A stretch of 64,000 bases of DNA from Rhina ancylostomus (taxonomy: Eukaryota): NCBI GenBank assembly GCA_030265395.1, contig JARFYF010000012.1, forward strand, positions 22,636,213-22,700,212. The letters run 5' to 3'. Shown here one piece after another: positions 32,086 to 35,259 of the stretch. Below the pieces are notes generated by a model that saw nothing but the letters and a program-made list of their open reading frames with translations, did not search any database and had not been told where the DNA came from. The position numbers and the translations under genes are program-made. How positions within the stretch are numbered: the first letter of the stretch is position 1; every line of letters starts with the position of its first letter.

Positions 32086-32206
32086 AACATAGAAACACAG
32101 AAGCATAGAAAAACCTGCAGCACAATTCGGGCCCTTTGGCCCACAAAGCTGTGCCGAACATGTCCCTACCCTAGAAATTACTAGGCTTACCCATAGCCCT
32201 CTATTT
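32086..32206 (-). mobile_element. CR1 3' tail forming the left end of the GC-rich cassette
   Basis: Reverse complement: gagggctatggg...ttcggcacagctttgtgggccaaagggccc...(tttctatg)n. Confidence 0.9.
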
Positions 32207-32441
32207 NNNNNNNNNNNNNNNNNNNNNNNNNNNNNNNNNNNNNNNNNNNNNNNNNNNNNNNNNNNNNNNNNNNNNNNNNNNNNNNNNNNNNNNNNNNNNN
32301 NNNNNNTGTGTCCCCGTGGATTGGGGTGCGATCCTTCCCTCCCCACACATGTTCACCGTCCTGTCATTTTGAACGCAGGATGACTTCCCCAGGACACACG
32401 CGGTGGCTTTTGGAGGTTGCGGCCCACATGACGCATCTCAC

Positions 32442-32645
32442 CTCGTCACAGGCTGAACATCGGGGCTTCATGAGCTCGGCGTGGTGACGCCCACAGTGGA
32501 TTTTGCCGCCTTGGTAGAAGTAGATGAGGTCAACGAGCAGCTCCTGGCAGGTGGAGCAGCTGAAGCACGCCGGGTGCCAGCAGACCGTGGAGCCCGCCCT
32601 GGAGACGAATATTGCAATCTCACCGCCGTTTATCTTCTCCTTGCA
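32442..32645 (-). CDS. prickle1: Isolated PRICKLE1-type exon (most of LIM1 and start of LIM2), 204 bp, phase 0-0; probably a transposed gene fragment
   Basis: [68 protein letters not shown] with acceptor tatatcttccag| and donor GAG|gtgaga. [20 protein letters not shown] favours Prickle1 over Prickle2. Confidence 0.9.
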
Positions 32646-32950
32646 CTGGAAGATATAGTGGGGGAGGGTGATGGGTGAGGTGGATGGGCAACCACATCCT
32701 CGTTCAAGGTACTGCAGCAACACATGAACGGCCAGGTTTACTGAAGATTTAGGAAGAGCCCAAAATTGAAACTGGACACCAAACAGAAAAAAAACAGCAG
32801 GTCCAAGGGACACCTCACCATCTGCTCAGAGCTGCTGAGACTTCACCCAATGACGCTGGTCAGCCAGGAGGTCGTTCGCAGCCAGGATTATAATGGATTT
32901 TATACCAGAATCAAAGATCTTTAGATTTACTGACCAATTCTAATTCATCT

Positions 32951-33832
32951 GAAAGAAACCAAGCAAGAGTTGAATTGGATTTCTGACTCCCTGGATTCCC
33001 AATACCTCTCGAGGGCCTGAGTTATAGGGAGAGGTTGGGGCAGGCTAGGACTTCATTCCTTGGGGCATAGGAGACTGAAGGGTGACCTTAGAGGTGTATA
33101 AAATCATGGGGGGCACACTGGCAGCTTTAAGGAGTAATAATCACTCTGGCTGCTCCCTGATAGTCAAGGGTCCTGCAGACACAGGGGTGGCCCCAACGTG
33201 ACTCGCTCCTGTGCCCATCTTGGGAGGGAGAAGCCCCTCGGTGGAGGCATCGGACCCGGGCAGAGTCTGCGGGTTTACTTTCGTCCTGACTCCCTGAAGC
33301 AGCGGGGATACCCTTTTCTGGTCTCCTCACCAGCTGTCCCAGAAGGACACACCATGGGGGGCCTTGTACAGACAATGTGCAAGGATGGACTCAGTCCAGG
33401 GATACTCCACAATTAAGAGTCATGGAAACAGGCCCTTTGGCCCAACTCGTCTGTGCCGACCAAGATTCCCATCTGAGCCAGTCCCATCTACGTGCATGGC
33501 CCATGTCCCTCTAAACCTTTCCTATCCATCTACCTGTCCAAGTACCTTTTAAATGTTGTTCTTATACCTGCCTCAACCACTTCCTCTGGCAGCTCGTTCC
33601 ATATACGCACCATAAATCTTTCCCTTCTCACCTTAAACCTCATGTTTTCGATGCCCTTTCTGTATCTATGCCCCTCATGATTTTATACACCTCCAAGGTC
33701 ACCCCTCAGTCCCCCACACTCCAAGGAATGAAGTCCTAGCCTGCCCCAACCTCTCCCCACAACTCAGGCCCTCGAGAGACACTGGGAATCCACGGAGTCA
33801 GAAATCCCACTCAACTCTTGCTTGATTTCTTT
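32951..33832. repeat. Inverted repeat pair, arms about 165 bp (32951-33114 and 33669-33832)
   Basis: Arms are reverse complements and share the same CR1-to-unique junction at ctcgag. Confidence 0.9.
33415..33775 (-). mobile_element. CR1 3' fragment with internal deletions
   Basis: gagtcatggaaacaggccctttggcccaac tail, similar to 1075-1500. Confidence 0.9.
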
Positions 33833-33981
33833 TAATGTACAAACATCTTCCCCGTGACTGAGATTTAAGTTACACTTTCAACATTTCAGCAGTGTCTATT
33901 ATACTGGTGTTGCGTTAAAGGAATAATAATTCATTGTTTACGCAAACATGTGAAAGTTTTAATAGACGTTGAGAAGTGGGG

Positions 33982-34200
33982 CGGGCATGGTAGAGTAGCA
34001 GTAACACTACTGCAGTGCCAGTGACCAGGGTTCAATTCCGGCCACTGCCTGTAAGGAGTTTGTACATTCTCCCTGTGTTTGCTTGGATTTCCTCTGGGTG
34101 CTCCGGTTTTCTCCCACACTCCAAAGACATAAGGGTTAGTAGGTTAACATGGGTGTAACTGGGCAGCGTGGGCTCATTGGGCCTGTTACTGTATAAATAA
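33982..34200 (+). mobile_element. V-SINE-type tRNA SINE
   Basis: B-box gggttcaattcc, core gagtttgtacattctccc, CR1 tail; homologous to 9715-9958. Confidence 0.9.
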
Positions 34201-35064
34201 CGTTTCAGTTGACCGTGTTGCTGTGTCCTTCCATTCAATAGGTTTTGGCAGTGATTTTCCTTCCCCCCCACCCCGCCCCCCACTCACACCGGGATGTGCA
34301 GTTACAGCTACCAGCTGCAGTTTGAGCCTTGCGTGAAGTGACTGCTACCGTCTGTGGAGGGTATTCAACGACAGGACCTGGGGAGACGAGCGTTCTTCTG
34401 CCCATGTTGCATTCACATTCCCATCCCCTCCTCCCACAGCTCACGAGACAGCAGTCTCACCGAGCTGCTCCCTCGCCAGCACCCCCAGCCCCACCCTCCC
34501 ATATCCTCTCCCCTCCCCGGGGCACAGGCTGAGTGGAAGCAGAGTCTTGCCTCTGTGTCTCTGCAACTGGACAACCACCATAAAGTGAGGTGTGTTTAGT
34601 TCCGTCAGGATTTCCAGTAATAGGCCAGGCAATCCCAACGGAACTCAACACGAGGACACTGCACTCCTCCGAGGTGGATTTTCTCCTCCGCCTTTCCTGC
34701 TGAAGTCGGTGCAGGAGAGCGGGTCCGATGGACCAGAGCCAGTGGATGTGCCACAATGGTCCCGGGTAGGAAGGATCTCAAGGAGACAGGAGTGAGGAGA
34801 GGGTCGGGCTCAGCCGGGGTCACCTCCAGAGCCCGAAATATTCACCAATACGACAGCCTGTTGGCTCCCGGCCAGCTGTGCTGGTGGGATTCACGTCCAG
34901 CGCGACTCTCGTGATCTCGGGGAAGGAGAGAGCCAGAGGGAGCAGCCGGATACATGGTTGTCTGCGATCTGTTCCTCTGTACCTGATCACAGACCATGTG
35001 CATCAACGCCCTGAGCAGTTGTTTGATGGTTCCTCATCCCAGAGCCTCTTTCTTCCTCTGCACA

Positions 35065-35259
35065 CTGAACACACTGCCAGCAGAGGTTGTGGGAGCAGAT
35101 ACATTAGGGACATTTAAGAGACTCTTAGATGGCCACATGACTGGTAGAAAAATGGAGGGCTATGTGGGAGGGAAGCGTTAGATTTTAGAGGATAAAATGT
35201 CGGCACAATATCATGGACCGAAGGACCTGTACTGTGCTGTAATGTTCTATGTTCTGTAT
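35065..35259 (+). mobile_element. CR1 3' fragment forming the right end of the GC-rich cassette
   Basis: NTLPAEVVGADTLGTFKRLLDGHM, then 3' UTR and gttctatgttct tail. Confidence 0.9.

Follow-up and report, generated by a model that had tools for sequence, protein, structure and literature searches.

Structure of the insert and its flanks

The analysed DNA is a stretch of 64,000 nucleotides from Rhina ancylostomus (contig JARFYF010000012.1, positions 22,636,213 to 22,700,212), referred to here as the window, and is a short-read scaffold with eight 100-N gaps. At positions 32086-35255/6 it carries an insert in which a fragment of the gene prickle1, introns included, is enclosed by the outward-facing 3' tails of two CR1-type long interspersed nuclear elements (LINEs). 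Both borders were defined by aligning the homolog P0192 to the two flanks, which are contiguous halves of a single old, decayed LINE reverse transcriptase (RT) frame on the minus strand. The left flank (31874-32085) is the downstream half and matches P0192 residues 121-132 at 32084-32049 and residues 152-201 at 32008-31874; the right flank (35257-35766) is the upstream half and matches residues 10-118 at 35628-35260. A phmmer search with the right flank returned 71 homologs at E <= 0.001, nine of which matched both sides of the insert, with P0192 alone reaching both edges. Pfam did not detect the decayed flanks in the six frames tried.

Across the insert, the P0192 alignment breaks off after residue 118, at 35260, and resumes with residue 121 at 32084; codon 119 corresponds to 35257-35259 and one base of codon 120 to 32085. 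The target site in the LINE either lost 0-2 nt or was duplicated over at most 2 nt. No target site duplication (TSD) longer than 2 nt is present at the insert edges, which falls short of the typical CR1-clade length (the empty site was not observed). Because 35257-35259 already read as LINE codon 119, the end of the insert was corrected to 35255/6 from the 35259 given in a preliminary description of this DNA. That description had rightly placed a minus-strand CR1-type tail exactly at the insert start, 32086, and a plus-strand tail of another subfamily at its end. The final 6 nt of the flank agree with the tail repeat at 4 of 6 positions, the last two exactly.

CR1 tails

The left tail (32086-32206, minus strand) is a CR1-type 3' end of one subfamily (CR1-A) with a stem-loop and about three 8-nt tail repeats. 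It is cut by a scaffold gap of 100 N (32207-32306), the true size of which is not fixed and which hides the junction between CR1-A and prickle1. This piece consists of untranslated region (UTR) only, has no match to open reading frame 2 (ORF2), and was assigned to CR1 by alignment to other 3' ends. The right tail (35067-35255, plus strand) belongs to a second subfamily (CR1-B) and comprises the end of ORF2, the 3' UTR and 7-nt tail repeats. This piece of about 190 nt joins a prickle1 exon partway along the exon's length, and the coding part of the piece matched the ORF2 C-terminus of P0259 (E 5e-8) and also that of P0260. Both tails face outward from a single break, and each starts within 0-2 nt of it. 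P0259 itself is a CR1-type ORF2 of 966 aa filed under Carnobacterium maltaromaticum on a 3-kb contig, and is probably vertebrate DNA in a bacterial record.

The alignment of the two tails gave 79 identical columns of 105 (75%; 62% with gaps counted) and a score of 99.5, compared with a shuffle maximum of 53. Diverged inverted termini of about 120 bp had been described here. The likeness is real; the length was set by the gap at 32206, the right piece extends over about 190 nt, and the resemblance reads as ordinary homology shared by the 3' ends of related abundant subfamilies, not as terminal inverted repeats. A stem-loop was predicted in both tails, with z-scores of only -1.1 and -0.7 against shuffles, which is not significant. 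Using blastn with each tail, no further A- or B-type tail was found in the 64 kb.

For comparison with read data, 4 of the 13 runs containing part of the window were used, one per organism (organisms A-D, runs X1-X4); X1 contained 0.87 of the window's words and is probably the source run. Tail depth in all four runs was 2.5e5-1.5e6, compared with 7-21 in single-copy bins, as for a high-copy interspersed family, and read depth corresponded to about 70,000-100,000 copies of each subfamily.

A palindromic high-copy repeat at 30741-30972 (89-nt arms, 78% identity) has many copies in the window. In all four runs there were contigs in which the end of this repeat at 30972 adjoins CR1 3' tails with nothing in between, up to 15 contigs per run showing the joints 30972-35255 and 30972-33421; these are tail-to-tail neighbours at other loci.

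The prickle1 fragment

All prickle1 segments lie on the minus strand. The intron downstream of the LIM1 exon occupies 32307-32441; the origin of its first part, 32307-32332, is uncertain, and parent-type contigs of C and D matched only from 32333, preceded by 93 other letters, while organism B matched from 32307. The LIM1 exon (32442-32645) has 68 codons, is open, has intact AG/GT splice sites and was recognized by Pfam as a LIM domain (E 9e-10). Its identity was 96% to Mobula prickle1b, 90% to skates and 87% to Narcine. It is followed by the intron between the two exons (32646-34982, about 2.3 kb), for which collinear contigs were found in C and D at about 9% divergence, and by the 3' part of the PET-domain exon (34983-35071). 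Comparison with homologs showed that the 5' part of this exon (17 codons) is absent and that the remnant carries TGA where homologs have Arg. The enclosed DNA has a GC content of about 53% (intron 50-55%), compared with 36-39% in the flanks. Introns and splice sites are kept and there is no poly(A), unlike in a processed retrocopy. The captured piece is a dead, single-copy gene fragment.

At the inner right junction, exon and CR1-B share 5 nt of microhomology (GAACA, 35067-35071): contigs of the CR1-B family start matching at 35067, and a parent-type contig matches up to 35071. This junction is known from the assembly only. In organism D, the parent-type contig extends past 35071 by 173 letters of different sequence, and homologs require 17 further exon codons, so CR1-B is not at that place in the parent. 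The mid-exon joint likewise speaks against an intronic CR1 of the parent gene as the source of the right tail at this place. Nor is CR1-B a later insertion into the copy, because it is followed by the LINE flank and not by exon.

The large intron contains two repeats and an inverted duplication, which is treated below. An older CR1 fragment (33410-33776, minus strand) forms, together with arm 2 of the duplication (33669-33832), the segment 33410-33832; a metagenome scan for copies of this internal CR1 gave 0 matches. An interspersed repeat at 33980-34204 (plus strand), presumably SINE-like (a short interspersed nuclear element), matches 9718-9935, 24484-24616 and 59131-59264 at 76-79% over 34001-34204. 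A second prickle1-named Mustelus protein, P0118, is 72% identical to the LIM1 exon; it occurs beside the usual prickle1b and is possibly a further shark paralog.

Occurrence in related organisms and timing

Junctions were read from the longest contigs listed for each run (a further 467,726 records lie outside this set), and site-level differences from the 40 rows listed of the 623 in a filtered table. The left junction was bridged by contigs of A (62 letters in) and B (81 letters in). Right-flank contigs of B, C and D began at 35230-35233, inside the CR1-B tail. Left-flank contigs of C and D both stopped at 32066, 19 nt before the insert, and continued with 32 and 22 other letters, respectively. 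Since 32067-32085 is genuine old LINE, this change would be derived in C and D, provided that the contigs are orthologous.

Over 34603-34915, two types of contig were found in A and one, the parent type, in D; B had two over 34610-34806. Thus, A and B each had two prickle-type contigs (parent-type and cassette-type, the cassette being the insert with its prickle1 copy) and D had one, among those listed, and there was no sign of spreading of prickle copies. Organism C was almost without cover at 34613-34839 even for the parent; contigs there show presence, not absence. At 34672-34763 the two prickle-type copies of A were apparently collapsed, with double depth. Positions 34710 and 34726 were common to both copies within species, by parallel CpG decay, gene conversion or contig merging.

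The flanks diverged by 2.5% between A and B (72/2920), by 5.3% between A and C and by 4.9% between A and D. The prickle DNA differed by 4.4% from the cassette-type copy of B and by 9.1-9.4% from C and D. Between cassette and parent-type contigs, divergence was 5.6% for B (11/197; 2.8-9.8%) and 9.1% for D (159/1740; 7.8-10.6%), with overlapping intervals. Among the listed sites, all seven changes private to the copy of A were G>A or C>T. Eight listed sites set the two cassette-type copies apart from the parent type; 6 of these have G/C in the cassette, 4 of them CpG, compared with 0 of 7 of the changes seen in A only (p 0.007, listed sites); without two sites missing a separate parent contig of A, the counts were 5/7 and 0/6 (p 0.02). 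The six G/C-ward sites are spread over both strands (2 and 4) and were for this reason not read as editing. They would be consistent with an early duplication followed, still before D split off, by decay in the parent, and the timing of the duplication leans early. The ancestor of A and B already had the cassette, as probably did that of all four organisms.

Intronic inverted repeat and possible RNA editing

Arm 1 (32952-33115, plus strand) and arm 2 (33669-33832) form a local inverted duplication of 164 nt that consists of a CR1 piece and unique DNA. The arms lie 553 nt apart, fold into a long duplex (z -18) and share a 1-nt insertion and a 2-nt deletion relative to the CR1 family. A CR1 5' junction lies within the duplicated segment, along with the unique DNA. 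If the contigs of C and D covering parts of both arms are parent copies, the duplication is older than the capture.

On the prickle-sense RNA the arms differ at 17 sites, with 13 G·U pairs, 2 A·C pairs and 2 transversions (one-sided p 0.004; 11 versus 2 without a CpG pair, p 0.011), and most A>G differences lie in arm 2. Among 27 repeat pairs of the window, this pair alone showed such a strand skew. A 5' U was found at 6 of 10 candidate sites in arm 2 compared with 3 of 35 other As (p 0.002), and a 5' G at 1 of 10 compared with 17 of 35 (p 0.03); enrichment of a 3' G was not significant (p 0.35). The neighbour test includes sites 33079 and 33067. Depletion of G upstream of the edited A is a described neighbour preference of ADAR (PMC4365171, like all papers cited here represented by part of its text).

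Changes were polarised with three old copies, two CR1 proteins and the runs as outgroups. Five sites were editing-like by these outgroups, namely the arm-2 equivalents of 33024, 33069, 33072 and 33090, and 33005 in arm 1; 33005 was the only site polarised by the relatives as changed in the cassette copy. The strand-skewed A>G differences with ADAR-like neighbours are suggestive of an RNA intermediate, as a hint and not as proof.

Origin of the insert

The explanation favoured here, at a little better than even confidence, is a single retrotransposition in which CR1 tails served to prime both sides of a break, with one of the copies running through prickle1 pre-mRNA. After a near-blunt break in the old LINE, both DNA ends would have been extended by CR1 RT. 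For the left end, an RNA that terminates in a CR1-A tail may have served for priming, and copying would have proceeded through unspliced prickle1 pre-mRNA, comprising intron, LIM1 exon, intron and part of the PET exon. The CR1-A tail may have been an intronic CR1 terminating that RNA, or a template switch may have added it; the junction that would distinguish these lies in the gap. On the right, priming on a CR1-B tail would have been followed by copying of about 190 nt, and the two cDNAs would have met head to head and been joined through the 5-nt microhomology. In C and D, the region near the left junction would have changed later.

The prickle1 sense orientation is the direction of copying from the left tail. 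The two pieces run in opposite directions, the 3' end of each lying at one target end, and microhomology lies at the inner junction (5 nt, 35067-35071); both are features of insertions from two templates. The chance of a separate insertion at the same break is about 6e-5 to 1e-4 per insertion, a rough figure based on 7e4 copies in 1.7-3 Gb, and both tails would lie at one break because they were made in one event. The data show the anatomy, the contiguous flanks, the microhomology, the occurrence in a second organism and no more than two copies; we infer a single event, an RNA intermediate, CR1 as the enzyme and a later loss in C and D. One deletion at a later time would account for both the change at 32066 and the missing cassette-type contig in D. 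The preliminary suggestion that both junctions may have been made by CR1 machinery is partly supported, by the outward 3' tails at one break, the sense orientation and the inner microhomology.

Several observations weigh against this explanation. Among the longest contigs listed in the four runs, none crossed the 32207-32306 gap, the 35067 junction or the whole insert, and none crossed the right junction in X1. Right-tail contigs of B, C and D reached just 23-30 letters into the tail, below the 31-letter rule, and count as a hint. At 34603-34915 the parent-type contig alone was seen in organism D. AT-ward changes on the cassette stem numbered 2 among the listed sites, compared with about 7 expected if the cassette were older than the split from C and D. 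For the editing signal, polarisation is mixed: sites 33064, 33109 and 33079 are other changes in arm 1, 33066/33067 form a CpG pair, five more sites are unpolarised or ambiguous, and the A>G changes may predate the capture (the arms of the parent were not observed). Finally, excerpts of PMC4245944 report no 5' inversions in cells for the stringent LINE ZfL2-1 and a peak of CR1-clade TSDs at 3-5 bp; no TSD of that length is present here.

Two separate retrotransposition steps form an unlikely alternative, in which CR1-B was inserted first and a CR1-A-tailed prickle1 pre-mRNA later, at its 5' junction and replacing the 5' part of CR1-B, or in reverse order. In its favour, organisms C and D show the right tail and no left tail, with the parent-type prickle contig alone in D. 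The parent-type contig of B (5.6%) is also closer to the cassette than that of D (9.1%), and repeat insertion at one site is described in Drosophila in the part of PMC5932611 available. This account needs the nick for the later insertion to fall no more than 2 nt from the earlier junction (about 1e-4) and, since 32067-32085 is old LINE, a separate change at 32066 in C and D. The divergence intervals overlap, and the contigs show presence, not absence.

Templated repair at the DNA level was given an equally small probability. Here a break in a pre-existing head-to-head pair of CR1-A and CR1-B would have been patched with genomic prickle1, via CR1 homology on the left and the 5-nt microhomology on the right. 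Such repair would account for the kept introns and for the lack of poly(A) and TSD; the microhomology suits end-joining, these being features of class 2 templated sequence insertions in the portion of PMC5110952 seen, and the left inner junction is hidden in the gap. It does not predict the strand-skewed A>G differences with ADAR-like neighbours or the sense orientation (50% chance), and it still requires two tails at one break.

An assembly chimera, in which the prickle copy together with its CR1-B end comes from another locus, or the left tail is unlinked, and repeats led to their joining in the short-read scaffold, is very unlikely. The eight 100-N gaps, a 108-nt duplicate across one of them, and the fact that neither inner junction was bridged among the listed contigs speak for it. 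Against it, the flanks are contiguous halves of one LINE, the left junction was bridged in two organisms, the right-flank contigs of three begin in the CR1-B tail, and a second, cassette-type prickle copy occurs in A and B at flank-like depth. The duplicate is a near-identical pair (98%; 51587-51694 and 51795-51902) that flanks a 100-N gap and is likely a scaffolding artefact; a looser duplicate (18400-18694 and 19295-19471) surrounds another gap.

A composite mobile unit with the outward CR1 tails as termini, proposed earlier in the form that any DNA between inverted CR1 tails could be mobilised, is hardly credible: transcription across the cassette would, whichever its direction, yield an RNA with a sense CR1 tail at its end, but no more than two prickle-type contigs were listed in A and B and one in D, the termini are 62-75% alike, of different subfamilies and without TSD, and target-primed reverse transcription needs one tail only, copying from which would lose the other by 5' truncation.

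Comparison with known systems

The closest likeness to the favoured event is found in insertions of L1 from two RNAs in human cells, nine of which are given in the available text of PMC11702581. There, two-template inverted insertions are joined with microhomology, and ADAR-type changes are confined to inverted repeats of the copied RNA. Common to both are two reverse-transcribed pieces, one from each break end, and a head-to-head joint with microhomology. Those insertions involve L1 and poly(A), mRNA and cultured human cells; the present insert is fixed in the germline, has a CR1-type tail at either end and lacks a clear TSD, and would stem from unspliced RNA.

In twin priming, the inverted piece normally comes from within 1-10 nt of the first cDNA end, and TSDs are 10-20 bp long (PMC2912911, PMC4245944 and PMC11702581, each in excerpt). 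The inverted 5' segment and inner-junction microhomology of 5'-inverted L1 and retrocopies resemble the present structure. Unlike in that process, the adjacent RNA here is coding exon (17 codons, the parent contig continuing with 173 other letters), a CR1 tail makes up the inverted piece, and no TSD of 10-20 bp is present, so that classical twin priming on adjacent RNA does not hold.

Templated sequence insertions of the human germline include intronic sequence, and their class 2 shows micro-deletion, microhomology and no TSD, as far as the part of PMC5110952 seen describes them. Classes 1 and 2 resemble the insert in that intronic or intergenic sequence comes from a distant locus in the germline. 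The class 1 poly(A) and TTTT/A site are absent here, and outer LINE 3' tails are not required by class 2. In the SINE/LINE tail sharing of stringent LINEs, such as that of HE1/HER1 in sharks and rays (PMC3747384, in excerpt), an RNA borrows a LINE 3' tail for reverse transcription, as may be the case here; the head here is a pre-mRNA instead of a small-RNA gene, and there is a single copy without amplification.

Composite DNA transposons carry passenger DNA between two inverted elements. As these are generally understood, the insert differs in having no terminal inverted repeats, transposase, TSD or further copies, and its termini belong to different subfamilies. The full-text literature searched yielded no description of a gene segment captured with its introns between outward CR1 tails, most subscription papers being outside its reach.

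Implications

CR1 is described as recognizing its own 3' end, which limits the host RNAs copied (PMC5470649, PMC3747384, both in excerpt). For non-mammals, the excerpted text of bioRxiv 10.64898/2026.06.26.734816 states that the number of retrocopies follows the content of CR1 or Tx1, and gives 14,081 retrocopies for cartilaginous fishes. The locus shows how CR1 might copy host RNA without relaxed stringency. It would present a variant of a retrotransposition outcome known for L1, in a LINE family not known for it, and is most likely not a mobile cassette. A signature to search for would combine two outward tails at a single break, DNA in sense orientation relative to one of them, microhomology at the inner joint, and strand-skewed A>G differences in intronic inverted repeats.

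It is a doubtful generalization that, in CR1-rich shark and ray genomes, intronic or template-switched CR1 tails regularly license unspliced pre-mRNA, with a second CR1 tail closing the break. If true, a recurrent class of intron-containing, TSD-less, ADAR-marked gene-fragment copies would exist between outward CR1 tails. Such copies would be missed by retrocopy screens and counted as DNA duplications, and would form an exon-shuffling route by a LINE thought too stringent for host RNA. One case, a dead fragment with a stop codon, shows neither function nor recurrence.

Other features of the window

With two homologs each of FATS and prickle1 as queries, tblastn detected a FATS exon and the two prickle exons in the window and nothing else. 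The first coding exon of FATS (C10orf90) lies at 2942-3556 (minus strand), and the cassette about 28.5 kb upstream of it. This exon was 77% identical to skates, 74-76% to stingrays and 71% to Narcine; a FATS tree of 12 rows placed it as a batoid outside a skate pair and a stingray trio, without fixing its position among them. The host is presumably of guitarfish or sawfish type.

A foreign origin of the insert, by contamination or transfer, was considered, as the prickle1 exon is 96% identical to stingray proteins and the FATS exon 74-77% to stingrays and skates alike. It was rejected because all four runs are rich in both CR1 subfamilies, read depth over the insert resembles that of the flanks in the best-matching run, and the left junction is common to a second organism.

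Rfam gave 0 matches in the window. Decayed long CR1-type ORF2 pieces were located at 1169-2713, 42421-43294, 46413-47621 and 53731-54504; the frames at 46413-47621 look like what we take to be CR1 ORF1.

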